A stretch of DNA of 51,377 nt from an uncultured Desulfobacteraceae bacterium (GCA_964633575.1 CAZWGY010000002.1:1-51377), one strand, 5' to 3'; shown: positions 7,843 through 35,299, counted from the first letter of the stretch. Notes: generated by a model not told the origin, from the sequence alone. Numbers and translations: made by a program.

Positions 7843-7878
7843 AAACCCCCAGCATCGAAAGCCGGCTGATACACCGCC

Positions 7879-11592: not shown

Positions 11593-11642
11593 GGGCGGCC
11601 GCGGGCTTCGACACCCACCCGCCGTTGGTGTCTTAAGTCGTT

Positions 11643-14222
11643 ATGGAATCACGACGTCAACCGCTTCAGCCCCCCGCCGGCGCCGAGGACCCGTCCGAGA
11701 TTCTTCGCCGGGCCGTGGCCCGCCATCAGAGAGGGGATCTGACGGGAGCCGGTTCCCTCTATCAGCGGGTCCTTGACGCCGACCCGCGCCAGCCCGATGC
11801 CCTCCACCTCTCCGGAGTCCTCGCCTTTCAAACCGGGGATAGGGACGCCGCCATTGACGCCATCCAAGCCGCCATCCAGCGGCGTCCGAACGAGCCGATC
11901 TACCGCAAAAATCTCGGCACCGTGCTCCAGGCGGCCGGGCGGATACCCGAAGCCATCGCGGCCTTTCGGCGGAGCCTCGATCTCAAGCCCGATTTTTTCG
12001 ACGCCGAGATCGGCCTGGCGGGGGCCATGGAGCGGCTTGGCCAGCGGGAAGCGGCCCTCGATGGATATCAGCGGTGCTTGGCGCTGAGGCCGGATGCCCA
12101 CGGGGTCTATTTCCGGATGGCCGCTACCCTCAGAGCCCTGGGACGGATCGACGAGTCCGTTGCCGCCTGCCGGGAGGCGATCCGCCGCCGGCCCGACCAG
12201 CCCCGTTACTCCGAAACCCTGGGAGACCTCCTCGCCGCCCGGGGGGAGACCGACGCCGCCCTGGATGCCTATCGGGAAGCCCTGCGCCGAGGCGGCGACG
12301 CCGCCGGCATCCGGATCAAGATCGGCATCCAGTTGGGGGGCGCCGGGAATCCCCGGGCCGCCCTGACGGCCTTTCAGGAAGCACTCCGTCTGGCGCCCGA
12401 CAACCCGGTCGCCCACCACAACGCCGGAGTGGCCCTCCGGGAGCTGGGCCGATCCCGGGAAGCCGTGGGCAGATTTCAGTCGGCCCTGGCCGGCCGCCCC
12501 GATTATGCCGAAGCCCACAACAACCTGGGCAATGCCTTTCGGGACCTCGGCCGTGATGAAGAAGCCCTTGCCTGTTACACCCGAGCCATCGAGATCCGGC
12601 GGAACTATCCGGATGCCCATAATAACATCGGCAACCTGTTAAAGGACCGGGGCCGGATCTCCCAGGCCATCGCGTCCTATGAGCGGGCGTTGGCGATCCA
12701 GCCCGACTACCCCTTTGCCCTCTACAACCTCGGCAACATCCGGGAGGAGCAGGGCCAACTCGAGACGGCCATCGATTTTTATGAGCGGGCCCTGGCGGTC
12801 CGGCCCGATTTCGGGCTCGCCTTTGCCAGCCTCGTCTATTTGCTCCAGTACGCCTGTGACTGGGACCGGCTGGCCGAACTCGGACCCCGGCTCGATGACC
12901 TCAACGCGGCGGCCCTGGAAAAGGGCCAGCGGACGCCGGAAACTCCCCTGGCCAACCTTTCCCGGAAGATGGACCCGGCGGAAAATTTCCGGATCGCCCG
13001 ATCCTGGGCCGGGGAGATCGAGCGGAACGTCGCGGCCCGGGGCGAAACCTTTGAGCCGCGGCCGGACCGGGCGTTCACCGGCGGCCGGATTCGGGTGGGC
13101 TATCTCTCCAACGATTTCCGGAGCCACCCGGTGGGACAGCTCATGGCCGGACTCTTTGCGGCTCACGACCGAAAGGTCGTCGAGGTGATCGGCTATTCCT
13201 ACGGCCGAAACGACGGGAGCGTCACCCGAGACCGGATTGCCAAAGGGTGCGACCGGTTCGTGGATATCCGGCCCCTGAGTCCCGAAGACGCCGCCCGGAA
13301 AATCCACGATGATGGCGTGGACATCCTCGTCGATCTCATGGGCCACACCCAGAGCAACCGGATGGCCATCTGCGCCCACCGGCCGGCTCCGGTTCAGGTG
13401 AGCTACCTCGGCTTTCCGGGAACCACCGGCGCCGGATTTTTCGACTACGTCCTCACTGACCCGATCCTCACCCCGCCCGAGCAGGCGCCTTGCTACAGCG
13501 AGGCCCTCGCCTACCTTCCCCACTGTTACATGGTCACCGACGACCGCCAGCCCATCTCCCGGCCCTTTCCCCGGCGGGCCGACGAGGGCCTTCCCGACGA
13601 CGCCGTGGTCTTCTGCTCCTTCAATTCGGCTCACAAGATCGAACCGGTGATCTTCGACGCCTGGATGCGGATTCTCCGGGCCGTGCCGGGGAGTGTGCTC
13701 TGGCTGCCCCGACGCCACGACGTGGCGGTCCGGAACTTGAGGCGGGCGGCGGGCCAATGGGGGGTGTCGTCGGAACGGCTGATTTTTGCCGATAAGCTGC
13801 CGGACAAGGCGGACCATATAAGCAGAATCATGCTGGCCGATCTGGCGCTGGATACCCGGATTTACAATGGCCACGCCACCACCGCCGATCTGCTCTGGAT
13901 GGGGGTGCCGGTGATTACGCTGAAAGGGCGCCATTTTGCATCCCGGGTCGCGGCCGGCTTGCTGACGGGCGTCGGGTTGCCCGAACTGGTTGTTGACCGC
14001 CTGGAAGATTATGAAGCCGTGGCCCGATCCCTGGCAACCCATCCGGACCGGCTTCGGCGCATCCGGCAACGATTGGCCAAAAACCGTCTGACCACGCCGC
14101 TGTTTGATTTGCCCCGGTTTGTCCGGGGACTCGAGCGGGCCTATCAGGAGATGGCCCGTCACTATCGTAAGGGACAGGAATGCCGAATGATTCATATTCA
14201 GCCGTCCGGAGGACGGCCATGA
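11643..14222 (+). CDS. TPR-repeat protein with C-terminal GT41 O-GlcNAc-transferase-like domain (eukaryote-type OGT/SEC-like)
   Basis: ORF track, 859 aa. About 400 aa of 34-aa TPR units (A..Y..AL...PD...A..NLG pattern) are followed, from about nt 13085, by a GT41-type catalytic region. That region reads RIRVGYLSNDFRSHPVG, DLMGHTQSNRMAICAHRPAPVQVSYLGFPGTTGAGFFDYVLTD, YNGHATTADLLWMGVPVITLKGRHFASRVAAGLL, ...TTPLFDLPRFVRGLERAYQEMARHY. As I recall it, human OGT has [33 protein letters not shown]...[24 protein letters not shown]. Confidence 0.88.
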   Translation: MESRRQPLQPPAGAEDPSEILRRAVARHQRGDLTGAGSLYQRVLDADPRQPDALHLSGVLAFQTGDRDAAIDAIQAAIQRRPNEPIYRKNLGTVLQAAGRIPEAIAAFRRSLDLKPDFFDAEIGLAGAMERLGQREAALDGYQRCLALRPDAHGVYFRMAATLRALGRIDESVAACREAIRRRPDQPRYSETLGDLLAARGETDAALDAYREALRRGGDAAGIRIKIGIQLGGAGNPRAALTAFQEALRLAPDNPVAHHNAGVALRELGRSREAVGRFQSALAGRPDYAEAHNNLGNAFRDLGRDEEALACYTRAIEIRRNYPDAHNNIGNLLKDRGRISQAIASYERALAIQPDYPFALYNLGNIREEQGQLETAIDFYERALAVRPDFGLAFASLVYLLQYACDWDRLAELGPRLDDLNAAALEKGQRTPETPLANLSRKMDPAENFRIARSWAGEIERNVAARGETFEPRPDRAFTGGRIRVGYLSNDFRSHPVGQLMAGLFAAHDRKVVEVIGYSYGRNDGSVTRDRIAKGCDRFVDIRPLSPEDAARKIHDDGVDILVDLMGHTQSNRMAICAHRPAPVQVSYLGFPGTTGAGFFDYVLTDPILTPPEQAPCYSEALAYLPHCYMVTDDRQPISRPFPRRADEGLPDDAVVFCSFNSAHKIEPVIFDAWMRILRAVPGSVLWLPRRHDVAVRNLRRAAGQWGVSSERLIFADKLPDKADHISRIMLADLALDTRIYNGHATTADLLWMGVPVITLKGRHFASRVAAGLLTGVGLPELVVDRLEDYEAVARSLATHPDRLRRIRQRLAKNRLTTPLFDLPRFVRGLERAYQEMARHYRKGQECRMIHIQPSGGRP

Positions 14223-17200
14223 CGACGGACGAGACGAAACGGCTCAAAGGGGGGGACGTCGTCGCGGCCACCGCCTCCGGCTCTGACCGGGCCGACCGGT
14301 TTCAAACCGCCTTGAGCGCTCACCAGAAAGGTCACCTGGCCCAGGCCAGAGCACTGTATGAGGAGGTGCTGGCCGACGATCCGGACCACGCCGATGCCAT
14401 CCATCTATTAGGGGTGGTTGCCTTTCAGGAAGGTCGCCATCCGGAATCCATTGACGCTATCCGGCGGGCCATTTCCATGAATCCCAATAAGGCGGTGTTT
14501 TTCGGGAATCTGGGGAATGCGTTGAAGGAATCGGGCGATCTGGACGAGGCCCGGGATGCCTATGACCGGGCATTGGCCATAAATCCGGATTTCATCGATG
14601 CCCATTACAACCGTGTCGGCATGGTCCGCTTTGAGGCCGCCGATCCCGCCTTTGATCGGCTCCATGAGCTGTTGAAAGCCTCCGCCACCGGTCCGGCGGA
14701 CCGGATGAAGCTCCATTTCACCCTCGGCAAAATGTACGCGGACATCGGCGAGACCGATGCGGCCTTTGAACAATACCGCCTGGCCAACGAGGCCCGGAAG
14801 GCCCATAAGGACTCCGACTTCAGTATTGACGACGTGGAAAAGACGGTGGCTCTCCTGATCCGGACCTTTGACCGATCGTTTTTCGAGTCCCGGACCGGTT
14901 TCGGGCTGGAGACGGCCGTTCCCGTCTTTATTGTCGGCATGCCCCGGTCGGGAACAACCCTGGTCGAGCAGATCCTGGCCAGCCATCCCAAGGTTTATGG
15001 CGCCGGGGAGATCGATGACATCGAGCGGATCTTCCAAAGCCTCGGAGACCATCGGCTGTCCGGGGCGTTTGTCCGGATTGCCCGGGGGATCGAATCGGGC
15101 CGGTCCCGGGAGCTGGCCGGGCGATACCTCGATCGGTTGAAGGCCTTGGCTCCCCATGCGGAGCGGGTCACCGACAAGATGCCCCAGAACTTCCTCTATC
15201 TCTGGTTGATCGCCCTCCTCTTTCCCAATGCCACCATCTTTCACTGCCGACGCGACCCCATGGACACCTGCCTGTCCTGCTACTTCACGGATTTTCAGAC
15301 GGGCCACGGCTACAAAAACGATCTGACCACATTGGGGCGCTACTACCGGCAGTACATCCGGCTGATGGAGCACTGGGGATCGGTCCTGCCCGTTCCCGTC
15401 CGGGAGGTCCGGTACGAGGATCTGGTGGATGATCCGGAAGGGGGGACCCGGCGTCTGATCGAGGAATCCGGTCTGCCCTGGGATGAGCGTTGCTTGAGGT
15501 TTTACGACACCCAGCGGTCGGTGGGGACGGCCAGCGTGACCCAGGTCCGCCGACCCATTTATCGCTCCTCGGTGGGCCGGTGGCGCCAATACGCCCGGCA
15601 CCTGACCCCGCTTCAAACGGCACTCGGAAAGATGGCGGCGCCCCCTTTCGACGTTAATGCCGTTTTGAAAAGCGCCGTGGAAGATCATCAGAAAGGCCGG
15701 CTCCAGGAGGCCGAAGCGGGGTATCGGCGGATTCTGGAGGCGGCACCGGCCCATGGCGATGCCCTCCATCTGCTGGGGGTACTGTCCTGTCAGACCGGCC
15801 GTCATGACGAGGGGGAGCGGCTGATCCGGAGCGCCCTCAAGGGGAATCCGAACAACCCGGTTTATCTCGATAACCTCGGCAATGCGTTGAGAGCGGCGGG
15901 AAAGCCGGAGGATGCCCTGGCCGCCTACCGCCGGGCGGCCGCCGCGTCGCCAGGGACTCCCAATGCCGGCGCCATTCATCTGAAGATGGCCCGGTTCCTC
16001 AAATCCCAGGGGCGGTTGGATGAGGCGGCGGCAAGCTATGCGGCATCCCTGGCCGTCACCCCGAACCGGGACCGGGTCCGACTCGAGCGGGCTGAATGCC
16101 TGTCCGCTCAGGGAAAGACGGCCGAGGCGGTTTCGGAGTATGCGCGATACCTGGAGCGCCATCCGTCGGATAGTACGGTGTTGGGGGAAATGGGGGCCGC
16201 GCTCAACCGGCTCGGCCGGTATCCGGAATCCGTGGCGATCCTCGACCGGGCCATTGCCCAAAATCCCGAGGTGGCTCAGCACCATACCAATCGGGGGATC
16301 GCCCTGAGAAAGCTGGGCCGGGTTGACGAGGCGGTGGATGCCTATCAAACCGCCATCCAACTCGAGCCGAACGATATCGGGGCCTATTACAACCAGATGC
16401 ATCTGAAAATCTATGAGCCGGATGATCCCGCCTTCAAGACGCTCGAAACCCTCTATCGTCACGGGACGCTTTCCAGTGCCAATCGGATGTATCTCCATTT
16501 TACCCTGGGGAAGATGTACGCCGACATCGGCGAACATGACCGGGCGTTCCACCATTACCATCAGGCCAATGAGACCCGGAAATCCCACAAGGGTCAGGAC
16601 TTTGACATCCGGGAAATCCGGGGGGCGATCGTGCTTCTGATGGAGCTCTGCGATGCCGGCTACTTCCGCGACCGCCGGGAAAGCGGGATTGCCGCGGAGC
16701 TTCCGGTCTTCGTGGTGGGAATGCCCCGCTCGGGAACCACGCTGGTCGAGCAGATCCTGGCCAGTCATCCGGAAGTCCACGGCGCGGGGGAGCTCCATGA
16801 CATCGGAAAGATCTATCACACGGTGATGAACGCCGCCTCCCAGGATGCTTTTATCGCCGCCATTCGATCGCTGGACCTGGATAGGGTCCGGGCGTCGGCC
16901 GAGCAGTATCTGGCCCGGATCGAAGCCCTGGGAAAGGGAGCCCGGCGGGTGGTTGACAAAATGCCCCAGAACTTCCTCTACCTCTGGCTGATCGCGATCA
17001 TGTTTCCCGGCGCCCGGGTCATCCACATCCGGCGGGACCCCCTGGATACCTGCCTGTCCTGCTATTTTACCGATTTTAATACCGGCCACGGCTATAAAAA
17101 CGATCTTGGGGATCTGGGTTCCTACTATGCGCTGTATCAAGCGCTCATGGCCCACTGGGGGAACGTCCTGCCGATTCCCATTCTGAACGTGACCTACGAG

Positions 17201-19528
17201 GAGCTGATCTCCGATCCGGAGACGGCTTCCCGGGAGATGGTCGAATTCTGCGGCCTCGAGTGGAACGAGCGGTGCCTTGAGTTTCACCGGCACCAGCGGG
17301 CGGTTCAAACGGCGTCCGTCACCCAGGTCCGACGGCCCATCTATCATTCTTCCGTGGGAAAATGGCGTCACTATGAACGCCATATCGAGCCCCTGAAAGC
17401 GGCCATTGCGGCTGATCCCCTCGGTTTCGACGCGGATGGGGCCATGCGGCGGGCCGTGACCTATCACCAGCAGGGGATGCTTGAATCGGCCGAAGCCCTC
17501 TACCGGAAGGTTCTGGCGGAAGCGCCGGATAACCCGGATGCCAGCCACCTTTTGGGCGTGTTGTCGTTTCAGCGGGGGGAAGCGACCCAGGGGGTCGAGC
17601 TGATCCAGCAAGCGACCCGGATCGATCCGGACAACTGGGCCTATTTCAACAACCTCGGCACCGCGTTGAAAAACGCCGGCCGGGTGGAAGAGGCCATTGA
17701 CGCCTATCTCCGGGCCATCGACCTGAAACCGGATCACCATGAGCCGCACTATAACCTGGGGGTGGCCCTGGCCGACGCCGGCCGGACCGAGGAGGCCATC
17801 GAGCGATACCGTCACGCCACCACCTTGAAACCGGACTATTGCGAAGCCTTCAACAACATGGGCAACGCCCTCAAAAGCATGGGGCGGTTGGACGAGGCCA
17901 TCGATAGCTACCAACGGGCCATCAAGATTAACCCCGACTACGCCAAGGCATACAACAACCTGGGCAGCGCGCTTTCCGGCCGGTTCAAATTCAAGGATGC
18001 GGTGGCCGCTTTCCAGCGGGCCATTGCCTTGAATCCGGAGTACCACGAAGCCTACAATAACCTCGGGGCCGCACTCAAGGACCGGGGGCAATTGAGTGCC
18101 GCCATCCGGAATTACCGGAAGGCCATCGCCCTGAAGCCGGATTATTATGAGGCCCACAACAACCTTGCCAACGCACTCAACAACCAGGGAAAGCTCGAAG
18201 AAGCGGTGACGGCCTACCGTCATGCGCTCGATATCAAGCCGGAATGCCATGAGGCTCATGATAATCTCCTGCTGACCCTCCAATACCTTCCCGATCATGA
18301 CCCCGCCCAGCTCCGGGCGGAGCATGATCACTGGGATGTCCGCCATGCCCGGCATCTGGCCGAAGAGGCGCCGCCCCACGGAAACGACCGGTCACCGGAT
18401 CGGCGGATTCGGGTCGGGTTCGTCTCCCATGATTTCGGCCGGCATCCGGTGGGCTATTTCCTGGTGGCCTACCTCGCGGCCCATGATCCGGATGCGGTCG
18501 AAGTCGTCTGCTATTCCGATCGGGTTCAGGAGGACGACATGACGGAGACCATCCGGTCCCATAGCGCCCTCTGGCGCCGGACGGTGGGTGTGCGGGATGA
18601 GCCGATGGCCGATCAAATCCGGGAGGACGGCATCGATATCCTCGTGGACATGTCCGGCCACACCGCCAAGAATCGGCTGATGGTCTTCGCCCGTCGGCCG
18701 GCGCCGGTTCAGGTGACCTGGCTGGCCTACCCCGGGACCACCGGCATGGCGGCGATGGACTATCTCATCGCGGACCGATGGGTGGCCCCGCCGGGAATGG
18801 ACGACGCCTACGCCGAAAGTCTGCTCCGGCTGCCGGAATCCTATCTCTGCTACGAGCCGCCGGATTACGCGCCGGATGTCAACAGCCTCCCGGCCCTCGA
18901 GAACGGCCATCTCACCTTCGGCTGCTTCAACAACCTGGCCAAGGTCACCCCGGCGGTGATTTCTCTCTGGGGGCGGATCCTTCGGGCTGTACCGGATGCC
19001 CGCCTTCTTCTCAAGTACCGATCCTTCAATGATAAAGCCGTCCAGGACCGGTACCGGGAGCTGCTAGCCGGTGAGGGGATCGCCGAGGACCGGATCGATC
19101 TCATCGGGGCATCAGCCTCTCATGTCACCCACCTCTCCCATTTCAACCGGATTGACGTGGCCCTCGATCCGTTCCCCTATAACGGGACCACCACCACCTG
19201 CGAGACCCTTTACATGGGGGTGCCGGTGATCAGCCTGGCCGGCCAGACCTTTGTCAGCCGTCAGGGGTGCGGTATCCTGGAAAATGTCGGGCTTTCGGAC
19301 TGGATTCCCCGCTCCTATGATGCCTATGTGGAGCGGGCGGTCACCTGCGTTGATCAGCTCGACGCGCTCAATGCCCTGCGCGGGACGCTTCGGCAACGGG
19401 TGGCGGACTCGCCGTTATGCGATGCCGGGCGGTTTGCCCGGCACCTGGAAGCGGGTTTTCGGCAAATCTGGAGACGGTGGTGCGACGGAATGGACCCATG
19501 GGCCGTGACCGTTGAGAGGGACTCGTGA
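14219..19528 (+). CDS. Multidomain enzyme: TPR-sulfotransferase, TPR-sulfotransferase, TPR-GT41 glycosyltransferase
   Basis: ORF track frame 14180..19528. I prefer ATG 14219 because GGAGGA lies 5 nt upstream and it forms an ATGA overlap with the upstream stop at 14220-14222. There are two sulfotransferase modules with the 5'-PSB-type motif [18 protein letters not shown]. The GT41 module starts at about 18401 ([69 protein letters not shown]). Confidence 0.88.
   Translation: [1769 protein letters not shown]
14923..15610 (+). other. Sulfotransferase module 1 (PAPS-dependent, TPR-linked family) inside gene 14219..19528
   Basis: [29 protein letters not shown] ... [38 protein letters not shown] ... 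[16 protein letters not shown]. This matches my recollection of the bacterial family of TPR-containing sulfotransferase proteins. Confidence 0.8.
16700..17393 (+). other. Sulfotransferase module 2 (paralog of module 1) inside gene 14219..19528
   Basis: [29 protein letters not shown] ... [38 protein letters not shown] ... [16 protein letters not shown]. It is collinear with module 1, including the preceding [13 protein letters not shown] segment. Confidence 0.8.
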
Positions 19529-25300: not shown

Positions 25301-26675
25301 GGGCAACCTCTTCAAGGAGCTTGGGGAGGCCGAAAAGGCGGTGGACAGCTACCAGCAGGCCCTGGCTCTGAATCCCGAATTCCGTGCCGCGTTTGAAAAC
25401 CAGCTTCTGGCCATGCACTGCCTGCCGGACCTTTCCCCCGAGGCGATCCGCCGGGCCCATGACGAGTGGAACTCGCGGTTCGCGGCTCCCCTGGCTGATC
25501 CGGCGGCCCAGCACGACAACGATCCGAGCCCCGACCGGCGCCTCCGGGTGGGGATCGTCTCCATGGACTTCGGTCAACATCCGGTCGGGTATATTCTCCT
25601 GCCCTTTTTCGAGGCCCATGATCCCGAGGCCATCTCCCTGTTCTGCTATACGGACCGCCGGCGGGAAGACCCGGTGACCGGTCGGCTCAAAGCCCGCGCC
25701 GCCGCCTGGCGCCCCATTGCCGGCCTGTCGGATCGGAGGGTGGCCGAGATGGTCCGGTCGGACCGGATCGATATCCTGGTGGACATGTCCGGCCACACCG
25801 CCGGCAACCGGCTTCTGGTTTTCGCCCGGAAGCCGGCCCCCATTGAGGTGAGCTGGGCCGCCTATCCCGACACCACCGGAATGACGGCGGTGGATTACAT
25901 CATTGCCGACCGGTGGGTGATTCCCGACGGCGCGGAGGCGGGATTCGCCGAGACCCCCCGCCGGCTGCCGGTGAGCTACCTCTGCTGGGAGCCGCCGGCC
26001 CATGCGCCCCCCGTCGGGCCGTTGCCGGCTCTGGAACGGGGATATCTCACCTTCGGCTGCACCAACAATCTGGCCAAGGTCACGAAAACGGTGATCGCCC
26101 TCTGGGCGGAGATTCTGAAGGCGGTGCCCGACGCCCACCTGTTGATGAAAAACCGGTATCTGGAAGACCCGGAAGTCGCGGACCGGTTCCGGAGCCGGTT
26201 TGTCGATGCCGGGGTCGATCCGGACCGGATTGAGCTGATGGGATATACCCCGAATCACACGGCTCACCTGTCGGCTTACGGACGGATCGACGTGGGGCTC
26301 GACCCTTTTCCCTACAATGGCACCACCACCACCTGCGAAACCCTGTATATGGGGGTTCCGGTGATCAGTCTGGCCGGGCGGACCTTCGTGGCCCGGCAGG
26401 GGGTCAGTATCCTCAACACCGTCGGTCTCCCCGACTGGGTGGCGGCATCGGAGTCGGACTACGTGGAGCGGGCGGTGGCCAGCGGGGCGGACCTCGATGC
26501 ATTGGCAAAGCTGCGGGCCGGATTGCGGGACCGGATGGCCACGTCGCCCCTCTGTAACGGCCCCCGGTTCGCCCGGGATATCGAGCGGGCGTTTCGAGAG
26601 ATGTGGCGCCGGTGGTGCGCCTCCCAGACAACGGAAAGGCAAGGCCATGGCGAAAAAACGTCGGCGGAAAGCTAA
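22365..26675 (+). CDS. Double-module enzyme: TPR-GT41-TPR-GT41
   Basis: ORF track, 1436 aa. There is an ATGA overlap with the upstream stop. GT41 module 1 spans about 23269-24355 ([17 protein letters not shown] ... [19 protein letters not shown]). GT41 module 2 runs from about 25537 to the end ([17 protein letters not shown] ... [19 protein letters not shown]). Each module is preceded by its own TPR array. Confidence 0.88.
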   Translation: [1436 protein letters not shown]

Positions 26676-28617: not shown

Positions 28618-31600
28618 AGGCGGCGCCACGCTGGCGGAAAAGCGGCGACGGCTTAAGGAAGGGGTCGCCCACCATCAGGCCGGTCGGCTCAGGGAAGCCG
28701 AAGCGGTTTACCGGGGGATTCTCGACCTCGACCCACAATACCCGGACGCCCATCATCTCCTCGGCGTGATCGCCTATCAGCGGGGGAATTACGACGAGGC
28801 GGAACGCCGAATCCGTCGGGCCATCGAGACAGGCGGCGACAATCACATCTTTTACAGCAATTTGGGCAACGCCCTCTTTGAAGCGGGCCGGCTGGCCGAT
28901 GGGCTCGAAGCCTACGACACGGCGGTCCGGCTGAAGCCCGACTTTGCCATGGGCCATTACAACCGGGGCAATGTCTTAAAGGAGCAGGGAGAACTCGACG
29001 CGGCGGTGGCGGCCTACCAGGAGGCCATCCGGCTCCAGCCCGATTACGCCGAAGCCTATAACAACATGGGCAACACCCTGAAAGATCTGGTCCGGGTGGA
29101 AGAGACCCTCGACTGCTACCGCCGGGCCCTGGAAATCCGGCCCGGTTACGCCCGGGCTCACACCAACATGCTCCTGACGCTCCACTACCTCCCGGATGTC
29201 TCCCCGTCGGAGCTTAAAGCCGAGCACGACCGGTATGAAGCACACCATGCCCGGCCCCTGGCGTCCCGGATTCGGCCCCACGGAAACCCGCCCGACCCCG
29301 AAAAGAGGCTTCGGGTGGGGTTCGTCTCGGCCGACTTTTGCCGTCACCCGGTGAGCTACTTTCTGCTCCCCTACCTGATGGCCCATGACCCCTCGGCGGT
29401 GGAAATCTTCTGCTACGACCAGCGGGAGCAGTCGGACGCGGTCACCGAAACCCTCAAGGAGAAGGCGGACGCCTGGCGGGTCATCCAGCGGATGAGCGAC
29501 GAGGCCGCCGCCGAACGGATTCGGGCCGACGGGATCGACATCCTGGTGGACCTCTCCGGGCACACCGCCCGGAACCGGCTTCTGGTCTTCGCCCGGAAGC
29601 CGGCTCCGGTTCAGGCCACCTGGCTCGGATATCCCGACACCACCGGAATGTCCGCGATGGACTACCTGATCTGCGACCGATGGGTGGCCCCTCCCGGGGC
29701 CGAGGGATGGTTTTCCGAGACCCTCCTTCGCCTGCCCGGCGGGTACCTCTGCTACGCCCCTCTGGAATGCGCCCCGGATGTGGGGCCGCTTCCCGCCCGG
29801 GAAGCCGGACACCTGACCTTCGGCTGCCTCAACAACCTCCCCAAGGTGACGACGGCCACGATCAACGTCTGGGCGGAGCTGCTCCGGGCGATCCCCGACG
29901 CCCGGCTGATTCTCAAAAGCCGGCCCCTCGAATACGAGTCGGTCCGGCGCCGATACCGGGATTTGCTCGAAGGGGCGGGGATTTCAGCCGATCGGGTCGA
30001 AATGATCGGCTACACCCCCTCCACCGCCGATCACCTCGCGATCTACAACCGGATCGACATCGCCCTCGACCCACTCGGCTACAACGGGACCACCACCACC
30101 TGCGAGGCCCTGTACATGGGCGTCCCGGTGGTCTCCCTGGCCGGGCCGAATTTCGCCGCCCGGCAGGGGGTGAGCATCCTGTCGGCGGCTGGGCTGACCG
30201 ACTGGATCGCCGAATCGGAGACCGATTATCTGAATAAGGCACTCCGCTGGGAGCGGAACCTCGACGACCTGGCCGACCTCCGCCGGTCCCTCCGCCAACG
30301 GATGATCCGATCCCCGCTCTGCAACGGCAAACGGCTCGCCCGGGAGCTCGAGACCGCGTTCCGGGAGATCTGGCGAACCTGGTGCGGCGGGCGGAAGGCG
30401 GCCGTACCGGCGGGAAAACGGCGGCGGAAGGTCCTCCATGTGGGTTGCGGCCCGGCCGGCCGGCTTCATCCGACCTTTGCCGGAAAGAACTGGGAGGAGG
30501 TCCGGCTGGACATCGACCCGGCGGCCAGGCCGGACATCACCGCCTCGATCACCGACATGGCCCCCGTGGCCGACGGCTCGGTGGACGCGGTTTACTCGGC
30601 TCACAACCTGGAGCACCTCACCGCCGACGAGGTGCCGGTCGCCTTAAGGGAGTTTTTCCGGGTCATACGGCCCGACGGCTTCGTCCTGGTCACCGTGCCC
30701 GATCTTGCCGCCATTGCCCCATTCATTGCCGGGGACCGGCTGGATGAGGTCCTCTACACCTCGCCGGCCGGACCCATCACCCCGCTGGATGTCCTTTACG
30801 GTTTCGGTCCCGCCCTGGCCCAGGGCAAGACCCAGATGGCCCACCGGACCGGCTTTACCGCCGAAACCCTGGAAGCGGCATTCCGGACGGCCGGCTTTCC
30901 CGGCGTGGACGTGGAAACCGAGCCGAAACAATTTGCCCTCGTGGCCCTGGCCCGGAAACAGGCCGATGTCGGCCCCCGGCTCTCCAAGGCAACGCCGCCC
31001 CCGGCGCCCACGCCCGACCTGGACGGAAAGCTCGCCGAAGCCATGGCCCACCAGAAAGCGGGCCGGCACGCCGAGGCCCAAAAGATATATAAGGCGATCC
31101 TGGCCGACCATCCCGATCATCCCGACGCCCTCCACCTCTACGGGCTCACCCGTCATCAGTTGGGCGACCATGAAACGGCCCGGAAGAGCATCGAGCGGGC
31201 CATCCGGCTCAAGCCGGACGCGGCCTTTTTCCACGTCAACCTGGGCAATGTCCAGATGGCGGCGGGGGACCTGGACGGGGCGGTTAAAACCTATCGCCGG
31301 GCCCTCTCTCTCAAGCCGGAGTCGGTCTCCGCTCAGGTGAACCTGGCCTCGGTTCTCCGGCGGCGGGGCCGGATGGCCGAGGCGGCCGAAGCCTACCAGG
31401 CGGCTCTCAAGCTCCAGCCCGACCGGGCCTCCCTCCATCACAGCCTCGGCGACGTCCTCCGGGACCTCGGCCGGCAGTCCGGGGCCATCAAGTGCTACCA
31501 GAAGGCCCTCTCCATCAAGCCCGACTATCCCGAAGTTTACAACAACCTCGGAAACGTTTACAAAGACCTCCGGCGGTTCGGCCGGGCCGTGGCCGCCTAC

Positions 31601-32986
31601 CGGAAAGCCCTGGAAATCCGTCCCGACCACCCGGACGTCCACACCAACCTCGGCTCCGCCTTGAAGGACCGGGGCGACTCGGCCGGAGCGGTCGCCGCCT
31701 ATGAGCGGGCCCTGACCCTCAAGCCCGAATGCCACATGGCCCGGACCAACCTCCTCCTGTCCATGCTCTACGACCCCGCTCAGGACGTCGATGCCCTCTA
31801 CGCGGCTCACCGCCGCTGGAACGATTTCCACGGCCGGCCCGTTGCCGGCCGGCCCGCCTACTCGAATTCGCCGGACCCGGACCGCCGGCTCCGGGTGGGC
31901 TACGTCTCCCCGGATTTCCGGCACCATTCCTGCGCCTGGTTCATCGAGCCGCTGCTGGCACATCACGACCCGGATGCGGTGGAAGTCCACTGCTACGCCG
32001 AAGTCATCCGGGAGGACGCCATAACCGAACGGATCAGGGGCCATGCCGAGGGCTGGTTCCGAACCGTGGGACTCTCGGACGCCGCCGTGGCCCGGCGGGT
32101 GATGGAAGACGGGATCGATATCCTGGTGGACCTGGCCGGCCACACCTCCTACAACCGGCTCCGGGTCTTCGCCGAAGCCCCGGCGCCGGTCCAGATTTCC
32201 TGGCTCGGGTACGGGACCACCACCGGCCTCGACGTGATGGACTACAAGCTCTCCGACCCCTGGATCACCCCGCCGGACATCGCCGAACGGTTCAGCGAGA
32301 CCCTCTGGCGTCTGAACCGCTGCTTTCTGGCCTACCGGCCGGAGACGACCCCGGACGCCGAAACGGTATCCCCGTTCGAGAAAAACGGGTACATCACCTT
32401 CGCTTCCTTTAACAACATGAGCAAAATCCAGCCGGTCACCCTCGAATACTGGGCCGAGCTCCTGAAATCCGTGCCGGATTCCCGCCTGCTCATCAAGGCC
32501 AAGCAGAGCCGGGACGACTATTCGACCCGCCGGGTCCGGGATGGGCTGGCCGCATTCGGCGTTGATCCCGACCGGCTCGTCTTCCAGCCCTATGCCGCCA
32601 AAGCCGCCGACCATCTGGCGACCTACGCCCTGGCCGACATCTGCATCGACACCTTTCCCTATAACGGCTGCACCACCACCTGCGAGGCCCTCTGGATGGG
32701 GGTCCCGGTGGTCTCCCCGGCCGGGGACCGGACCGTCGCCCGATACGGCGCCACCCTTCTCCCCGCCGCCGCCCTCCCCGATCTGGTGGCGGAGACTCCG
32801 GCGGATTTCGTCCGGATTGCCGCCGGGCTGGCCGAGGACACCGACCGGCTGCGCCGGCTCCGGCGGACCATGCGGGACCGGCTCCTGGCCTCGGCGCTCT
32901 GTGACGCGGCCGGGTTTGCCCGGGCCGTCGAGGGGGCCTACCGGGAGATCTGGCGCCGCTGGTGCGAGGGTTCAAACCGATCATGA
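28607..32986 (+). CDS. Multidomain enzyme: TPR-GT41 - SAM methyltransferase - TPR-GT41
   Basis: ORF track frame 28529..32986. I prefer ATG 28607 because a GGGGGGAG Shine-Dalgarno lies just upstream; it overlaps the upstream gene by 11 nt. GT41 module 1 spans about 29305-30390. The methyltransferase module spans 30428-30960. A second TPR array follows, then a more divergent GT41 module from about 31883 (RLRVGYVSPDFRHHSCAW, DLAGHTSYNRLRVFAEAPAPVQISWLGYGTTTG, FPYNGCTTTCEALWMGVPV). Confidence 0.88.
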   Translation: MDGEGGATLAEKRRRLKEGVAHHQAGRLREAEAVYRGILDLDPQYPDAHHLLGVIAYQRGNYDEAERRIRRAIETGGDNHIFYSNLGNALFEAGRLADGLEAYDTAVRLKPDFAMGHYNRGNVLKEQGELDAAVAAYQEAIRLQPDYAEAYNNMGNTLKDLVRVEETLDCYRRALEIRPGYARAHTNMLLTLHYLPDVSPSELKAEHDRYEAHHARPLASRIRPHGNPPDPEKRLRVGFVSADFCRHPVSYFLLPYLMAHDPSAVEIFCYDQREQSDAVTETLKEKADAWRVIQRMSDEAAAERIRADGIDILVDLSGHTARNRLLVFARKPAPVQATWLGYPDTTGMSAMDYLICDRWVAPPGAEGWFSETLLRLPGGYLCYAPLECAPDVGPLPAREAGHLTFGCLNNLPKVTTATINVWAELLRAIPDARLILKSRPLEYESVRRRYRDLLEGAGISADRVEMIGYTPSTADHLAIYNRIDIALDPLGYNGTTTTCEALYMGVPVVSLAGPNFAARQGVSILSAAGLTDWIAESETDYLNKALRWERNLDDLADLRRSLRQRMIRSPLCNGKRLARELETAFREIWRTWCGGRKAAVPAGKRRRKVLHVGCGPAGRLHPTFAGKNWEEVRLDIDPAARPDITASITDMAPVADGSVDAVYSAHNLEHLTADEVPVALREFFRVIRPDGFVLVTVPDLAAIAPFIAGDRLDEVLYTSPAGPITPLDVLYGFGPALAQGKTQMAHRTGFTAETLEAAFRTAGFPGVDVETEPKQFALVALARKQADVGPRLSKATPPPAPTPDLDGKLAEAMAHQKAGRHAEAQKIYKAILADHPDHPDALHLYGLTRHQLGDHETARKSIERAIRLKPDAAFFHVNLGNVQMAAGDLDGAVKTYRRALSLKPESVSAQVNLASVLRRRGRMAEAAEAYQAALKLQPDRASLHHSLGDVLRDLGRQSGAIKCYQKALSIKPDYPEVYNNLGNVYKDLRRFGRAVAAYRKALEIRPDHPDVHTNLGSALKDRGDSAGAVAAYERALTLKPECHMARTNLLLSMLYDPAQDVDALYAAHRRWNDFHGRPVAGRPAYSNSPDPDRRLRVGYVSPDFRHHSCAWFIEPLLAHHDPDAVEVHCYAEVIREDAITERIRGHAEGWFRTVGLSDAAVARRVMEDGIDILVDLAGHTSYNRLRVFAEAPAPVQISWLGYGTTTGLDVMDYKLSDPWITPPDIAERFSETLWRLNRCFLAYRPETTPDAETVSPFEKNGYITFASFNNMSKIQPVTLEYWAELLKSVPDSRLLIKAKQSRDDYSTRRVRDGLAAFGVDPDRLVFQPYAAKAADHLATYALADICIDTFPYNGCTTTCEALWMGVPVVSPAGDRTVARYGATLLPAAALPDLVAETPADFVRIAAGLAEDTDRLRRLRRTMRDRLLASALCDAAGFARAVEGAYREIWRRWCEGSNRS
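30428..30960 (+). other. Class-I SAM-dependent methyltransferase module (apparently intact) inside gene 28607..32986
   Basis: KVLHVGCGPAG (motif I), VRLDIDP (acidic motif II), GSVDAVYSAHNLEHL, and FRVIRPDGFVLVTVPDL (post-III). This is a typical Methyltransf_11/23-like pattern. Confidence 0.75.
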
Positions 32987-35274
32987 CGGCAACGGACACG
33001 AAAGCGGTGCTCCGGCGGGCCATCGCCGACCATCAGGCCGGGCGGGCCGACCGGGCCGAAAGCGGTTACCGGGAGGTCCTGGCGGCCGACCCGGACCAGC
33101 CCGATGCCCGCCATCTCATCGGCGTTTTGGCCTACCAGCGAGGGGAGCTGGACCAGGCCATGGCGGAGATCACCCGGGCCATCGAATTGGATCCAAATCG
33201 GGCCGTCTTTCACGGCAACCTGGGCAACGTCTATCGGGACCGGGGGGAGCCCCGGCGGGCCGTGGAGACCTTCCGCCGGGCTCTCCGGCTGAAACCCGAC
33301 TTCGCCGACGCCCTCTCCAACCTGGGCAACACCTGGATCGACCTGAAACAGACCGGGCGCGCCCTCTCCGCCTACCGCCAAGCCCTGAAACGGGAGCCGG
33401 AACGCCCGGAAGCCCGGTTCGGCATGGCCAATGTCTTCAAGCACCAGGGCCGGGCAAAGGAGGCGGCCGATGCCTTTGCAAAGGCTCTGGCGGCCCGGCC
33501 GGACAGCGTCCGGATGCACGACAACCACCTCCTCGCCCTCCACTACCTCCCCGGCATCACCCCGACGGCCCTGCGCGAGGCCCACGACGCCTGGTACCGC
33601 CGGCACGGGGCGCCGCTGACCCGTCAGGCCCGGACTCCGGAAACCGATCCCGACCCCGACCGGCCCATCCGGCTGGGGCTGGTCTCCCGGGACTTCGGCC
33701 GTCACCCGGTGGGCTTTTTCCTGACCCCCTTTGTGGCGGCCCGGGACCGGGGTGAGCTGACCCTCTGCTGCTACGCCGACCGCCGGGCCGAGGGCGAAAT
33801 GACCCGATGGTTCCGGGACCGGGTGGACCTCTGGCGGACGGTGGTCGGGATGGATGACGAGGCACTGGCCCGGCGGATTCGCGAGGACCGGATCGATATC
33901 CTGGCGGACCTCTCCGGCCACACCGCCGGAAACCGCCTGGGGGTCTTCGCCCGGAAGCCGGCCCCCATTCAGGTGGCCTGGATCGCCTACCCGGACACCA
34001 CCGGCCTGCCCGCCGTGGATTATATCGTCTGCGACCGCCAGGTCCTGCCCGAAGGTGATGAGCCGTGGTATGTGGAGCGGCCGCTCCGGCTGCCCGACGG
34101 CTACCTCTGCTATGGCCCTCCGGCGACGGCCCCGCCGGTTTCGCCCCCGCCGGCGGTCCGGCGAGGGTTTGTAACCTTCGGCTGTTTCAACAACACCGCC
34201 AAGGTGAGCCGGGAGGTGGTGGAGTGCTGGGCCGCGATTCTCCGGGCCGTGCCCGGCTCCCGCCTGGCCCTCCGGAGCATCCCCCTTGACGACCGCTATA
34301 TCCGGCGGCTATACCGGCGGCTGTTCGCCGACAACGGGGTGACCCCGGACCGGGTGGATATGGACGGCACGGTCTCCCATTACGACTACCTGGCCGGCTA
34401 CGGCGGGATCGACATCGCCCTCGACCCCTTCCCCTTTCCCGGCGGGCTGACCACCTGCGAGGCCCTCTACATGGGGGTCCCGGTGGTGAGCCTGGCCGGG
34501 GAGACATTCGTGAGCCGGCAGGGGCGCTCCATCCTCTCGGCCGCCGGGCTCGGCGACTGGGTGGCCGCCACGGAATCAGATTACCAGCACCTGGCCATCT
34601 CCCGGGCCAACCGGATCGACGATCTGGCCCGGCTCCGGGCCGGGCTTCGGGATCAAATCCTCGCTTCGCCCCTTTGCGACGGGCCCCGGTACGCCCGGGC
34701 GGTGACGACGGCCTTCCGGCGGATCTGGCGGGAGCATTGCGAAACGATGGCGGCCCCGAGCCGACTCCGCCTTGGCGGCGGGCTGGAGATTCCCGACGGC
34801 GAAGGCCCGGAACCAGAAGGCGATGGGCCAATCCGGTGGATGCCGGACGGGGACGCCCCGGCCATCTTGGACCTCTCGGGGGTAAGGTCGGACTCGGTGG
34901 CCGAGATCCGGTCGGTCCTCTGCCTGGCCCGGCTTCTCCCCGGCGACCACGACCGGGCCCTGGCCGAATCCATCCGGGTCCTGGCGCCGGGCGGCCGGGC
35001 GGTCTTTTTTGTTCCGGACCTGGCCGCCATCGCCGCTCATCTCAGAGGGGACGGCCCCGTCCGCCCACTCTTTCGGGACGGTGACGGCTCGGTGACCCCC
35101 ATGGACCTTTTATTCGGGCGGAGCCCGTCCCATCCGCCCATCCGCACTGGAATGACCGGGGACCGGATCGTTCAAATCCTCCGGAAAGCCGGGCTCGAAC
35201 GGGTCCGGGGCGGTCGAATCCGGAGCCGGTATCTTCTATGGGCGGTCGGCCACAAGCCCCAACAAAGGGGTTGA
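32983..35274 (+). CDS. TPR - GT41 glycosyltransferase - degenerate methyltransferase-like C-terminal domain
   Basis: ORF track frame 32962..35274. I prefer ATG 32983, which forms an ATGA overlap with the upstream stop at 32984-32986. The GT41 module starts at about 33664 (IRLGLVSRDFGRHPVG, DLSGHTAGNRLGVFARKPAPIQVAWIAYPDTTG, FPFPGGLTTCEALYMGVPV). The tail from about 34760 has RVLAPGGRAVFFVPDL but carries LRLGGGLE in place of motif I. Confidence 0.85.
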   Translation: MTATDTKAVLRRAIADHQAGRADRAESGYREVLAADPDQPDARHLIGVLAYQRGELDQAMAEITRAIELDPNRAVFHGNLGNVYRDRGEPRRAVETFRRALRLKPDFADALSNLGNTWIDLKQTGRALSAYRQALKREPERPEARFGMANVFKHQGRAKEAADAFAKALAARPDSVRMHDNHLLALHYLPGITPTALREAHDAWYRRHGAPLTRQARTPETDPDPDRPIRLGLVSRDFGRHPVGFFLTPFVAARDRGELTLCCYADRRAEGEMTRWFRDRVDLWRTVVGMDDEALARRIREDRIDILADLSGHTAGNRLGVFARKPAPIQVAWIAYPDTTGLPAVDYIVCDRQVLPEGDEPWYVERPLRLPDGYLCYGPPATAPPVSPPPAVRRGFVTFGCFNNTAKVSREVVECWAAILRAVPGSRLALRSIPLDDRYIRRLYRRLFADNGVTPDRVDMDGTVSHYDYLAGYGGIDIALDPFPFPGGLTTCEALYMGVPVVSLAGETFVSRQGRSILSAAGLGDWVAATESDYQHLAISRANRIDDLARLRAGLRDQILASPLCDGPRYARAVTTAFRRIWREHCETMAAPSRLRLGGGLEIPDGEGPEPEGDGPIRWMPDGDAPAILDLSGVRSDSVAEIRSVLCLARLLPGDHDRALAESIRVLAPGGRAVFFVPDLAAIAAHLRGDGPVRPLFRDGDGSVTPMDLLFGRSPSHPPIRTGMTGDRIVQILRKAGLERVRGGRIRSRYLLWAVGHKPQQRG

Positions 35275-35299
35275 CAAGGGAAGCAAACCGGTGATAAAT
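35271..35299 (+). promoter_or_regulatory. Candidate sigma70-type promoter for the TolC-like / giant-adhesin unit
   Basis: A perfect TTGACA (35271-35276, overlapping the upstream stop) is followed by a 16-17-nt spacer and then GATAAAT (35293-35299). It marks the start of a 273-bp AT-rich gap. Sequence match only. Confidence 0.35.

Follow-up and report, generated by a model that had tools for sequence, protein, structure and literature searches.

An accessory array of eleven TPR-headed glycosyltransferase and sulfotransferase modules as a candidate cytoplasmic toolbox for exported-protein modification in an uncultured Desulfobacteraceae bacterium

Introduction

Why would a bacterium chain nine GT41 glycosyltransferase domains, two sulfotransferases and a methyltransferase into a single run of genes, and what would such a set of enzymes decorate? 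The question is raised by a stretch of DNA of 51,377 nucleotides from an uncultured Desulfobacteraceae bacterium (GCA_964633575.1, CAZWGY010000002.1:1-51377), analysed here at its full length and referred to as the window. The reading that we favour, at a probability of roughly 45%, is that the array is a cytoplasmic toolbox of eleven TPR-guided modifiers, probably acting on an exported surface protein such as the adhesin encoded next to it. The array is also a large example of a widespread, little-studied bacterial enzyme family.

Results

Organisation of the array

The array extends over 23.6 kb (positions 11643-35274) as seven plus-strand open reading frames, all intact, in which neighbouring genes overlap successively by 4, 4, 4, 29, 11 and 4 nt, confirming the seven abutting same-strand genes described in an initial annotation of this DNA. 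It encodes eleven TPR-headed modules, nine of them GT41 and two Sulfotransfer_3, together with three methyltransferase-like domains, one an intact class I enzyme and two degenerate. Coordinates refer to the most plausible starts, which for g6 and g7 are assigned by inference and for g2 and g5 match independent gene calls; the g2 ATG at 14219 is preceded by GGAGG and overlaps the g1 stop by 4 nt. Judged by these overlaps of 4-29 nt, the seven genes form a translationally coupled operon. Promoter and terminator scans at both array ends gave results at or below shuffle expectation and are uninformative.

11643-14222, plus strand: g1, about 9-11 TPRs and an OGT/SEC-clan GT41 domain (nt 13047-14183)
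14219-19528, plus strand: g2, TPR-sulfotransferase (14885-15643), TPR-sulfotransferase (16667-17419) and TPR-GT41 (18362-19498)
19525-22368, plus strand: g3, TPR-GT41 (20713-21852) with a degenerate methyltransferase-like tail (21865-22365)
22365-26675, plus strand: g4, TPR-GT41 (23232-24359), then TPR-GT41 (25497-26639)
26647-28617, plus strand: g5, TPR-GT41 (27472-28614)
28607-32986, plus strand: g6, TPR-GT41 (29273-30403), class I methyltransferase (30428-30979) and TPR-GT41 (31844-32983)
32983-35274, plus strand: g7, TPR-GT41 (33622-34761) with a deviant donor pocket, and a degenerate methyltransferase-like tail (34822-35265)
TPR heads (HMM): nt 11706, 14306, 15668, 17447, 19597, 22416, 24378, 26761, 28655, 31034 and 33013
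GT41 domain starts: nt 13047, 18362, 20713, 23232, 25497, 27472, 29273, 31844 and 33622

The TPR heads were located with an HMM built from five of them, which returns exactly 11 strong matches (40-87 bits), every other TPR scoring at most 16 bits, and so reproduces an earlier count made by hand. The nine GT41 start points proposed at the same time mark the RxRVGxVS motif and lie within about 10 nt of the present positions, while the closing FRxIWRRWC motif, which had been attributed to all nine domains, is strict in five and variant in the others. Approximately 71 TPRs are detected across the array, many with an NLG-type Asn motif, and 5-11 of them precede each of the nine GT41 domains. The TPR regions span 213-468 aa and are 28-45% identical to one another, compared with 52-60% for the catalytic cores. 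The array proteins have neither a signal peptide nor a membrane segment and on this basis are predicted to be cytoplasmic.

At the nucleotide level the modules are 60-80% identical and long near-identical repeats are absent. Independent assemblies reproduce window positions 11301-27765 (99.9%), 17141-22543 (91%) and 33097-37414 (97.8%), leaving 27765-33097 as the sole segment resting on the present assembly alone. Because the modules are only 60-80% identical in DNA, assembly collapse or chimerism is unlikely.

GT41 domains of two clans

Pfam Glyco_transf_41 matches all seven genes (E 2e-38 to 3e-110; 132-369 bits for the seven proteins against a cut-off of 25) and nine separate domains are resolved, with E-values of 2e-98 for g1, 6e-54 for g2, 3.5e-106 in four stretches for g4 and 3e-110 for g6. 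The Pfam searches bear out the GT41, sulfotransferase, methyltransferase and TPR assignments of the initial annotation; its nine OGT/SPY-like domains stand as GT41 domains but split into one OGT-clan member (g1) and eight members of the SPINDLY (SPY) clan. The NCBIfam equivalog model for HMW1C-type NGTs reaches only 26-47 bits against its cut-off of 1000, and no curated NCBIfam family scores above cut-off for any module.

The best solved relatives of g1 are Drosophila OGT (1e-93), human OGT (2e-86), XcOGT (2e-65) and SPY (3e-55), so that it is not closer to SPY than to OGT, and its nearest relative is in an Azospirillum locus (49%) rather than another module of the array. It keeps the catalytic Lys and His, carries Arg at the uridine-reading hOGT R904 position and Tyr at the C917/Y744 position, and lacks T748. 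Seven of the eight SPY-clan domains form a lineage-specific expansion; the second GT41 domain of g6 falls outside it, with external nearest relatives (about 51%) and a SPY match of E 4e-93. The best solved relative of g5 is Arabidopsis SPINDLY (E 2e-92), and for both g5 and the second g6 domain the SPY match (E about 1e-92) contrasts with that to hOGT (1e-41 to 1e-53). SPY-clan residues are also present in the g4 domains. In all, three or more GT41 lineages and two predicted nucleotide classes are represented in the array. An AlphaFold model of g5 (pLDDT 80.9, pTM 0.79) consists of 14 paired helices followed by a GT-B fold, aligns to SPY across some 640 columns (TM-score 0.73-0.81), and returns SPY at the top of a fold search.

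Equivalents of SPY D491, H495, N661 and K665 are present in all nine GT41 domains. These include the essential Lys (SPY K665, hOGT K842) and His (SPY H495, hOGT H558), mutation of which inactivates SPY (PMC9715652). Because all nine domains keep both residues, the array is not one of pseudo-enzymes, the outcome that the initial annotation had named as contradicting its reading. Additional donor-pocket positions, with roles described in PMC9715652 and PMC10027727, are kept less uniformly: the guanine-contacting K689 in 7/9 domains, Y744 in 8/9 and T748 in 7/9. The SPY signature consists of K689, A731 and Y744 (PMC10027727); among the eight SPY-clan modules K689 is found in seven (Arg in g7), Y744 in seven (Phe in g7) and A731 in only two, the others having H, H, T, I, T and G. 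The g7 pocket departs furthest, carrying K689R, H728Y, Y744F and T748L at the SPY positions. The residues of the SPY clan would thus fit a GDP-sugar with a small sugar, not specifically fucose; GDP-fucose itself is not predicted because A731 varies among the modules.

Sulfotransferase and methyltransferase domains

Both g2 sulfotransferases match Pfam Sulfotransfer_3 strongly (E 6e-96, 321 bits against a cut-off of 27) and contain PRSGTT, the 5'-phosphosulfate loop, and RRDPxDTxxS, the 3'-PB motif. Their best solved relatives are the protein-tyrosine sulfotransferases TPST1/2, at weak similarity (E 1e-9 to 5e-8), and the predicted acceptor is Tyr or a sugar. The methyltransferase insert of g6 matches Methyltransf_11 (44.8 bits against a cut-off of 21.2, E 2e-11) and has motif I as VLHVGCG. 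The g3 and g7 tails are homologous to it (E 6e-8 and 2e-13), yet they lack motif I, with SRRDG replacing GCG in the g3 tail, and have no Pfam or NCBIfam match. Three methyltransferase-like inserts are therefore present, as first described, but only that of g6 reaches Pfam and keeps motif I.

An accessory island beside a giant surface-protein gene

The array begins at a sharp boundary and is followed on the same strand by two further genes, the second of which starts 2 kb downstream of the array, behind the TolC-like gene.

11593-11642, no strand: left edge of the variable island, from the livF stop to the g1 start
35548-37101, plus strand: TolC-like outer-membrane protein (Pfam OEP, E 4e-23), a candidate export partner
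37271-50302, plus strand: giant surface-protein candidate of 4,343 aa, with DUF4347 at its N-terminal end and a cadherin domain close to the C-terminus

A contig from a relative (L092) is 91.7% identical over window positions 276-11592. The match breaks off precisely at the livF stop, and L092 contains neither GT41, sulfotransferase nor methyltransferase sequence, nor a TPR head. At the array start similarity falls from 92% in nucleotides to 50% in amino acids and stays low through the OEP gene and the start of the giant gene. The array, which two other assemblies carry with 91% and 98% identity, is thus an accessory island, absent at the same site from a relative with a 92%-identical left flank. 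The array has a GC content of 66% (GC3 76-85%) and the left flank one of 62% (GC3 84-89%), a difference too weak to call horizontal transfer from composition. A cluster of Ser/Thr kinase, PP2C and FHA genes lies 6 kb upstream of the array on the opposite strand and is conserved in L092. The best named matches of LivK, at about 75%, come from Desulfonema, Desulfosarcina and Syntrophobacterales and indirectly suggest Desulfobacterota.

The OEP protein is 50% identical to the L092 copy and matches TIGR01844 (type_I_sec_TolC) weakly (E 1e-6, below cut-off); a search for synteny of its gene in GTDB genomes returned no relative. The giant protein contains 33 tandem Calx-beta-like repeats of about 108 aa (aa 376-4037), is acidic, has no Cys, and consists of 15.6% Thr and 7.2% Ser (23% Ser/Thr). 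Two Tyr are conserved per repeat. A proposed match between nine conserved Ser/Thr columns and the nine GT41 domains was rejected, as the count runs from 23 to 1 with the threshold; the two Tyr columns alone are robust. An orthologue search with the giant protein gave repeat-level Calx-beta matches alone and no orthologue. It contains no RTX nonapeptides or GGxGxD motif, so its export route is itself putative. No type I ABC or membrane-fusion genes occur in the window, which ends 1 kb past the giant gene, and none for nucleotide-sugar or PAPS synthesis. Likewise, no flagellin-like ORF was found in any frame of the 51-kb window, and no flagellar genes in the flanks.

Related loci

Among 160 related GT41 loci, nine have at least four GT41 domains, with up to 12 in 21 kb and single ORFs carrying six, so that the organisation is neither unique nor exceptional. 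Arrays elsewhere range freely from 2 to 12 modules, a library scan yields at least 150 protein clusters whose polypeptides each carry two to six GT41 domains, and fusions of GT41 with a sulfotransferase are common. SPY-like GT41 proteins in bacteria amount to 28,326 clusters at 50% identity (E 1e-30 or better). The TPR-GT41-tail architecture of g7 recurs in four metagenome loci (L110, L125, L126 and L144); the best match in a metagenome scan with g7 is 43% identical, so that the scan widened the survey without adding close relatives.

Flagellin genes adjoin related GT41 genes in 17 of the 160 loci, often directly, including Burkholderia, Paraburkholderia and Trinickia isolates and alphaproteobacterial loci with three flagellins. 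A few of the loci adjoin large repeat surface proteins: in L052 a cadherin/Big_9 adhesin lies directly upstream of a TPR-MT/GT41/ST cluster, and in L079 an FG-GAP/PKD/RTX protein lies directly downstream. Some related loci sit amid housekeeping genes. A homologue of the OEP or giant protein lies beside none of the 160 loci, and none of three other DUF4347 giant proteins has a GT41 neighbour. A literature search on multi-GT41 arrays, COG3914 and TPR-sulfotransferases found no published characterisation of such arrays, and almost no experimental work on SPY-like bacterial GT41 enzymes; with no curated NCBIfam family naming such an array either, the initial statement that no characterised system has this organisation is supported.

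Discussion

Proposed function

In the proposed mechanism, the TPR superhelix of each module would hold an extended stretch of substrate and feed Ser/Thr (or Tyr) to the attached catalytic domain. For the eight SPY-clan GT41 domains, the probable reaction is transfer of a small sugar, either a hexose or a deoxyhexose, with a GDP-sugar as donor; the OGT-clan domain of g1 probably uses a UDP-sugar. Additionally, the two TPST-like sulfotransferases would place sulfate from PAPS onto Tyr or sugars, and the intact g6 methyltransferase may add methyl groups. Because divergence is far greater among the TPR arms than among the catalytic cores, the modules most likely work in parallel on different sites or sequence contexts rather than processively. 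Their target would most likely be a Ser/Thr-rich surface protein that is destined for export and modified in the cytoplasm before it folds; the likeliest, though unproven, candidate is the adjacent 4,343-aa Calx-beta-repeat adhesin. In favour of this link, the array, OEP and giant genes adjoin on one strand, similarity to L092 drops where the array starts and remains low into the giant gene, the adhesin is 23% Ser/Thr, related enzymes elsewhere lie beside flagellins or surface proteins, and FlmG and RaxST set precedents for cytoplasmic modification of exported proteins. Against it, an OEP gene and a DUF4347-type gene occur in L092 with no array present, so the adhesin is not dependent on these enzymes. 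Also against it are the three other DUF4347 giant proteins with no GT41 neighbour, the lack of an OEP or giant-protein homologue beside any of the 160 loci, a window with no genes for nucleotide-sugar or PAPS synthesis, type I ABC or membrane-fusion proteins, and the missing RTX repeats. The solved bacterial GT41 enzymes TtOGT and XcOGT, moreover, showed little or no activity in vitro (PMC9715652).

A more far-reaching version, which we consider distinctly unlikely, joins the array, the TolC-like gene and the 33-repeat protein into one mobile, strain-variable module making a mucin- or proteoglycan-like surface fibre, the eleven enzymes patterning the unfolded adhesin combinatorially before type I export. 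Each enzyme would then read a different repeat context and lay down deoxyhexose or hexose, sulfate or methyl groups, the sulfate perhaps going to the Tyr pair conserved in each repeat.

Alternative readings

The array may instead glycosylate flagellin in the manner of FlmQ and FlmG, with flagellin genes elsewhere in the genome and the modules serving several paralogues or many sites. This is unlikely, although flagellin-linked loci recur in the survey; FlmQ itself may be a GT41 enzyme. In B. cenocepacia, flmQ is the predicted flagellin glycosyltransferase gene, and its deletion leaves flagellin unglycosylated and causes motility defects (PMC4462625); the TPR domain of FlmG, moreover, binds six flagellins (PMC7591256). 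The 51-kb contig, however, has neither a flagellin-like ORF nor flanking flagellar genes, and the array shares its variable region with the OEP and giant adhesin genes instead. The known flagellin island that the initial annotation had set against its own reading is thus matched by the company of the relatives but not by the window itself. The assembly line suggested at the outset, in which the modules act in fixed order on one acceptor to initiate, extend and cap a defined oligosaccharide with sulfate or methyl groups, is improbable. Translational coupling, the fusion of modules, the diversity of lineages and nucleotide classes, and a methyltransferase fused straight after a GT41 domain all suit it, as does the GT41 enzyme HMW1C, which can start a hexose chain and also lengthen it (summarised in PMC9715652). 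Yet each module has a full peptide-binding TPR arm, needless for a glycan-extending enzyme, seven catalytic cores are near-equivalent paralogues with differing arms, no docking or carrier elements are indicated in the sequence, and module number varies freely in other arrays. Ordered action is not evidenced, and arms of 28-45% identity against cores of 52-60% fit a parallel toolbox better.

There is equally little chance that the enzymes are broad regulatory modifiers of many cytosolic proteins, unrelated to the adjoining adhesin. Such a role would follow SPY and OGT, the closest characterised homologues, which modify hundreds of intracellular proteins (PMC10027727), and would suit both the related loci among housekeeping genes and the kinase, PP2C and FHA cluster upstream. 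That cluster, however, runs on the opposite strand and is retained by the array-less relative, whose very existence would be odd for a core regulator, and nine paralogues with diversified arms and sulfotransferases resemble surface-structure diversification. Least credible, and by a long way the least probable, is a decaying paralogue array, a mostly pseudo-enzymatic TPR scaffold or a repeat assembly artefact: the four donor-pocket substitutions of g7, the missing T748 of g1, the SAM motif lost in two of three methyltransferase-like domains and the segment without an independent assembly speak for it, but seven intact ORFs over 23.6 kb, the essential Lys and His in 9/9 domains and three stretches reproduced by independent assemblies speak against it.

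Significance

This locus could make the function of SPY-like GT41 enzymes testable, as it offers a rich module set (three GT41 lineages, TPST-like sulfotransferases and a methyltransferase), an adjoining candidate substrate and natural presence/absence variants. If the adhesin link is true, cytoplasmic glycosylation and tyrosine or sugar sulfation would extend to giant type I-type adhesins, and the modules would supply glyco-engineering with a set of TPR-guided enzymes that differ in specificity. If the surface fibre is real, a type I-secreted adhesin would for the first time be seen to receive O-linked sugars and sulfate from a multi-enzyme cytoplasmic pathway, and the bacterial SPY-like GT41 family, which is very large, would gain its first assigned function. 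Were the target flagellin, the array would be large but would follow a known theme in a conventional way.

Comparison with known systems

The closest structural counterpart is SPY (PDB 7Y4I, 8DTF-8DTI), the Arabidopsis GT41 protein O-fucosyltransferase, which like the array modules combines a TPR arm with a GT-B domain. It is 40-44% identical to eight of the modules over the whole catalytic domain (E about 1e-92), and D491, H495, N661, K665, K689, H728, Y744 are largely kept. SPY, however, is a single-module eukaryotic nucleocytoplasmic regulator, whereas the array chains eight copies with other enzymes in a bacterial accessory operon. With Pro replacing S496 in seven of these eight copies and A731 variable, the donor may be a sugar nucleotide other than GDP-fucose. 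OGT and XcOGT (XCC0866) are closest to g1, which shares their Lys, the uridine-reading Arg and a His at the H920 position. In place of human OGT C917, g1 has a Tyr, as does XcOGT, and a Tyr here has been argued to exclude GlcNAc (PMC9715652). It further differs from OGT in an Ala at the T921 position and, at a length of 379 aa, in lacking the metazoan intervening domain.

HMW1C and other NGTs offer a parallel in gene arrangement, being cytoplasmic GT41 enzymes encoded beside the large secreted HMW1 adhesin, which is glycosylated at many sites; the array is similarly adhesin-adjacent. Their sequences are distant from it (E 1e-12 to 1e-13; NCBIfam NGTferase 47 bits against 1000) and, unlike the array modules, NGTs have no canonical TPRs, transfer an N-linked hexose and serve an adhesin exported by two-partner secretion. 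For the sulfotransferases, the counterpart is RaxST of Xanthomonas, likewise a cytoplasmic TPST-like enzyme, which sulfates RaxX before type I secretion with a TolC-like outer-membrane protein (PMC4646787, PMC11554876). RaxST has no TPR arm and a 60-residue peptide substrate, whereas the array sulfotransferases are TPR-armed and only weakly similar to TPSTs (E 1e-9). The logic of the proposed toolbox is shared by Caulobacter FlmG and Burkholderia FlmQ, in which a soluble cytoplasmic enzyme uses its TPR domain to pick an exported protein before secretion; in FlmG, the TPR domain binds flagellins and the GT domain glycosylates them in the cytoplasm (PMC7591256). FlmG, however, is one module that transfers pseudaminic acid through a GT domain described only as GT-B, whereas the array brings together eleven modules and three chemistries.

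Architecture of the module array

The 51,377-bp window is an entire contig of an NCBI assembly. The array consists of seven genes, g1 to g7, arranged head to tail on the + strand between a Liv-type ABC transporter and a TolC-like gene (OEP):

6640–11592: Liv-type ABC transporter, left neighbour of the array
11643–35274 (+): the 23.6-kb array, g1 to g7
35548–37101: TolC-like gene (OEP), right neighbour of the array
37271–50302 (+): gene of a giant protein, on the same strand as the array and 2 kb downstream

The genes leave no intergenic space, as the initial annotation had described, and, taking the most plausible start codon of each, neighbours overlap successively by 4, 4, 4, 29, 11 and 4 nt. 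GGAGG-like sequences precede several of these start codons, an arrangement typical of translational coupling. Pfam assigns Glyco_transf_41 to all seven proteins, Sulfotransfer_3 twice to g2 and Methyltransf_11 to g6 on a TPR background throughout, in line with the domain families named in the initial annotation. Using a single domain as the probe resolves nine GT41 domains of ~380 aa (g4a/g4b and g6a/g6b denote the first and second domains of g4 and g6), together with two sulfotransferase domains and three methyltransferase-like segments homologous to one another. An HMM of the head, the near-invariant TPR sequence that opens each module, yields exactly eleven strong matches, one ahead of each catalytic module, while the remaining TPRs score far below them; ~71 TPRs are detectable across the whole array. 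The eleven-module composition first read from the sequence is thus confirmed. None of the seven proteins carries a signal peptide or membrane segment. Because the head motif also occurs in 46 of the 84 first-surveyed related loci of other genomes, it is a family hallmark and not a peculiarity of this locus.

As to the assembly, the modules share only 60–80% nucleotide identity, and no long near-identical repeats occur within the array. Specifically, livF-g1-g2-g3-g4-g5 is reproduced at 99.9% by four independent Logan assemblies, g2-g3-g4 is carried at 91% by a second NCBI genome, and g7-OEP-start of the giant gene is carried at 97.8% by a third, leaving 27765–33097 as the sole segment supported by this contig alone.

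Catalytic domains and active-site residues

For eight of the GT41 domains the closest match is Arabidopsis SPINDLY (SPY; E ~1e-92, 40–44% identity), a protein O-fucosyltransferase, followed by Thermobaculum OGT, with metazoan OGTs much more distant. The g1 domain is nearest to Drosophila and human OGT and XcOGT, and to SPY only after these. A full-length model of g5 (pLDDT 80.9) superposes on SPY through its TPRs and catalytic domain together (TM 0.73–0.81).

Residues given importance in the two structural papers (PMC9715652, PMC10027727) were mapped in SPY numbering. Since 9/9 domains retain the essential K665 together with D491, H495 and N661, the array is not composed of pseudo-enzymes; the pseudo-enzyme reading raised in the initial annotation fails on the domain-by-domain residue check, with K665 and H495 present throughout. 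The guanine residue K689 is kept in 7/9, Y744, which fills the pocket used by OGT for the N-acetyl group (PMC9715652, PMC10027727), in 8/9, and T748 in 7/9. In addition, g1 has Arg at the position of human OGT R904 (uridine), and g7 deviates at four donor-pocket positions. On these residues, at least two nucleotide classes are most likely in use across the array, and GlcNAc is unlikely as the transferred sugar; fucose is not specifically predicted, because the A731 position varies among modules.

In the sulfotransferase domains both PAPS-binding motifs are retained; the nearest solved relatives of these domains, at a weak match (E 1e-9), are protein-tyrosine sulfotransferases. Motif I is kept in the g6 methyltransferase and lost in the methyltransferase-like tails of g3 and g7, which are probably inactive remnants.

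Expansion and accessory status

The catalytic domains of g2, g3, g4a, g4b, g5, g6a and g7 are mutual nearest relatives at 52–60% identity, which indicates an old expansion inside this lineage, while for g1 and g6b the nearest relatives lie in other genomes. In the same modules the TPR arms share only 28–45% identity, with lengths between 213 and 468 aa; the recognition arms have thus diversified as the chemistry stayed unchanged.

A 330-kb contig of another sample (L092) is 91.7% identical to window positions 276–11592, a flank encoding FHA, PP2C, kinase, NAD kinase and livKHMGF genes. Indirect evidence, from the best named LivK matches (about 75%; Desulfonema, Desulfosarcina and Syntrophobacterales), makes the host probably a member of the Desulfobacterota. 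The flank includes a signalling cluster (1242–5410, − strand) in which an 849-aa CHASE2-Ser/Thr kinase is encoded along with a PP2C phosphatase and a double-FHA protein. This cluster has 92% nucleotide identity in L092, where the kinase appears as two gene calls of 476 and 389 aa, perhaps through a frameshift in a long-read assembly. A 320-aa ORF (276–1238, − strand) is also conserved there; it belongs to no Pfam family, and its N-terminus gives only a weak zinc-ribbon or rubrerythrin-like match.

Similarity to L092 ends exactly at the livF stop codon, and the 23.6-kb array of the window is replaced in L092 by an unrelated 2-kb stretch, in which neither GT41, sulfotransferase or methyltransferase sequence nor a TPR head can be traced. 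Beyond this stretch lie a TolC-like gene, its product just 50% identical to that of the window, and a DUF4347-type gene whose start has 73% nucleotide identity. Everything to the right of livF is thus fast-diverging or replaced. Some relatives carry the array (copies at 91% and 98%) and another does not, which makes it an accessory island. The livF-OEP filler of L092 (14956–17020) has a lower GC content (55.5%) and contains a 163-nt tandem repeat (15030–15337; 1.9 copies, 95% matches), possibly a scar, or a small repeat element, left where the island joins its flank.

Candidate substrate

For the protein target of the array we infer an exported surface protein, decorated by a parallel toolbox of TPR-guided enzymes (probability about 0.45), with the adjacent giant adhesin as the leading candidate. 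This protein has 4,343 aa, is acidic and lacks Cys, and combines a DUF4347 N-terminus and, towards the C-terminal end, a cadherin domain with 33 tandem Calx-beta-like repeats of ~108 aa each (aa 376–4037; consensus GDTgxFxVxLxxQPTxxVTVTxxSxDTxEGxV...LTFsxxNWxxxQTVTVTGxDDxxxDGDxTY...GGGYxG...TNvDdD). Ser/Thr make up 23% of its residues, Thr alone 15.6%, and each repeat contains two conserved Tyr in acidic contexts. Searches for a close orthologue found none. Just downstream of its gene, a SapC-family ORF (50972–51376, + strand; Pfam PF07277, E 3e-42) is truncated by the contig edge.

Proteins of this type are expected to be unfolded before export, a state that would be suitable for enzymes binding extended peptides in a TPR groove. 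HMW1C with HMW1 is a precedent for such cytoplasmic modification before export. Further precedents are FlmG with flagellin (PMC7591256) and RaxST with RaxX (PMC4646787, PMC11554876). Against the adhesin link, L092 has its own OEP and adhesin genes although it lacks the array, and three other DUF4347 proteins are encoded with no GT41 gene beside them. In addition, an RTX motif is absent from the giant protein, and the 51-kb window shows neither ABC nor MFP genes.

The main rival, a flagellin glycosylation system of the kind the initial annotation named as an alternative, draws on the 17 of 160 surveyed related loci that have a flagellin gene nearby, often directly adjoining, far more than the one or two of a rough chance expectation and in keeping with known TPR-guided flagellin glycosyltransferases (PMC7591256, PMC4462625); the window itself, however, holds no flagellin, and we rate this rival as unlikely. 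A few other related loci adjoin large secreted repeat proteins:

L052 (gammaproteobacterial MAG), 2–12571: cadherin/Big_9 repeat protein (C-terminal part), with the enzyme cluster 68 nt downstream
L079: FG-GAP/PKD/RTX protein directly downstream of GT41-related genes
L040: PA14 protein nearby
L087/L088 (soil metagenome), 20–17177: TPR-sulfotransferase-GT41 protein, with FG-GAP and PKD proteins after the cluster

L052 is a second, independent adhesin-plus-toolbox neighbourhood; its cadherin/Big_9 gene is followed by a TPR-methyltransferase, a TPR-GT41, a TPR-sulfotransferase on the opposite strand and a further two TPR-GT41 genes. The L087/L088 cluster also encodes a GT2, four TylF/Methyltransf_24 methyltransferases, two further sulfotransferases and a TPR-2OG-Fe(II) oxygenase, so that TPR-guided modules of yet another chemistry may exist. 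Of the proposed multi-module decoration system, the enzyme families and kept residues stand; its organisation is not exceptional, and a parallel toolbox is preferred over an assembly line.

Comparison with related arrays

Scanning one genome per species returned at least 591 relatives, and 33 of the 80 loci kept have at least two GT41 domains in the 10 kb to either side, several loci combining GT41 with TPR-sulfotransferases. The largest examples are as follows:

L029 (Sedimentisphaerales MAG), 159–19636: 12 GT41 domains in 21 kb, back to back
L056 (Pelobacter MAG), 1916–15629: 3,750-aa ORF with six GT41 domains, then radical-SAM/methyltransferase and PMT_2 genes
L012 (cyanobacterial MAG), 2566–17238: 4,890-aa ORF with six GT41 domains

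A further 80 metagenome loci, bringing the total to 160, include arrays of 4 and 7 GT41 domains. An exhaustive profile search gives 28,326 clusters with E-values of 1e-30 or better; in all of the best 150, a single polypeptide holds two to six GT41 domains. Homologues of g2 (the best 38–45% identical) include many multi-module TPR-sulfotransferases of 1,100–3,000 aa and TPR-sulfotransferase-GT41 fusions in Bradyrhizobium, Acidisphaera, Thauera, Thiorhodovibrio, Magnetococcales and others. The suggestion that this organisation resembles no characterised system holds in that the literature searched yielded no paper describing such arrays, and no curated NCBIfam model was found; as far as found there, the family is without experimental characterisation. 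In sequence space the organisation is not very unusual. The array belongs to a widespread bacterial family of modular TPR-GT41/sulfotransferase enzymes, of which it is a large member, well preserved and rich in composition.
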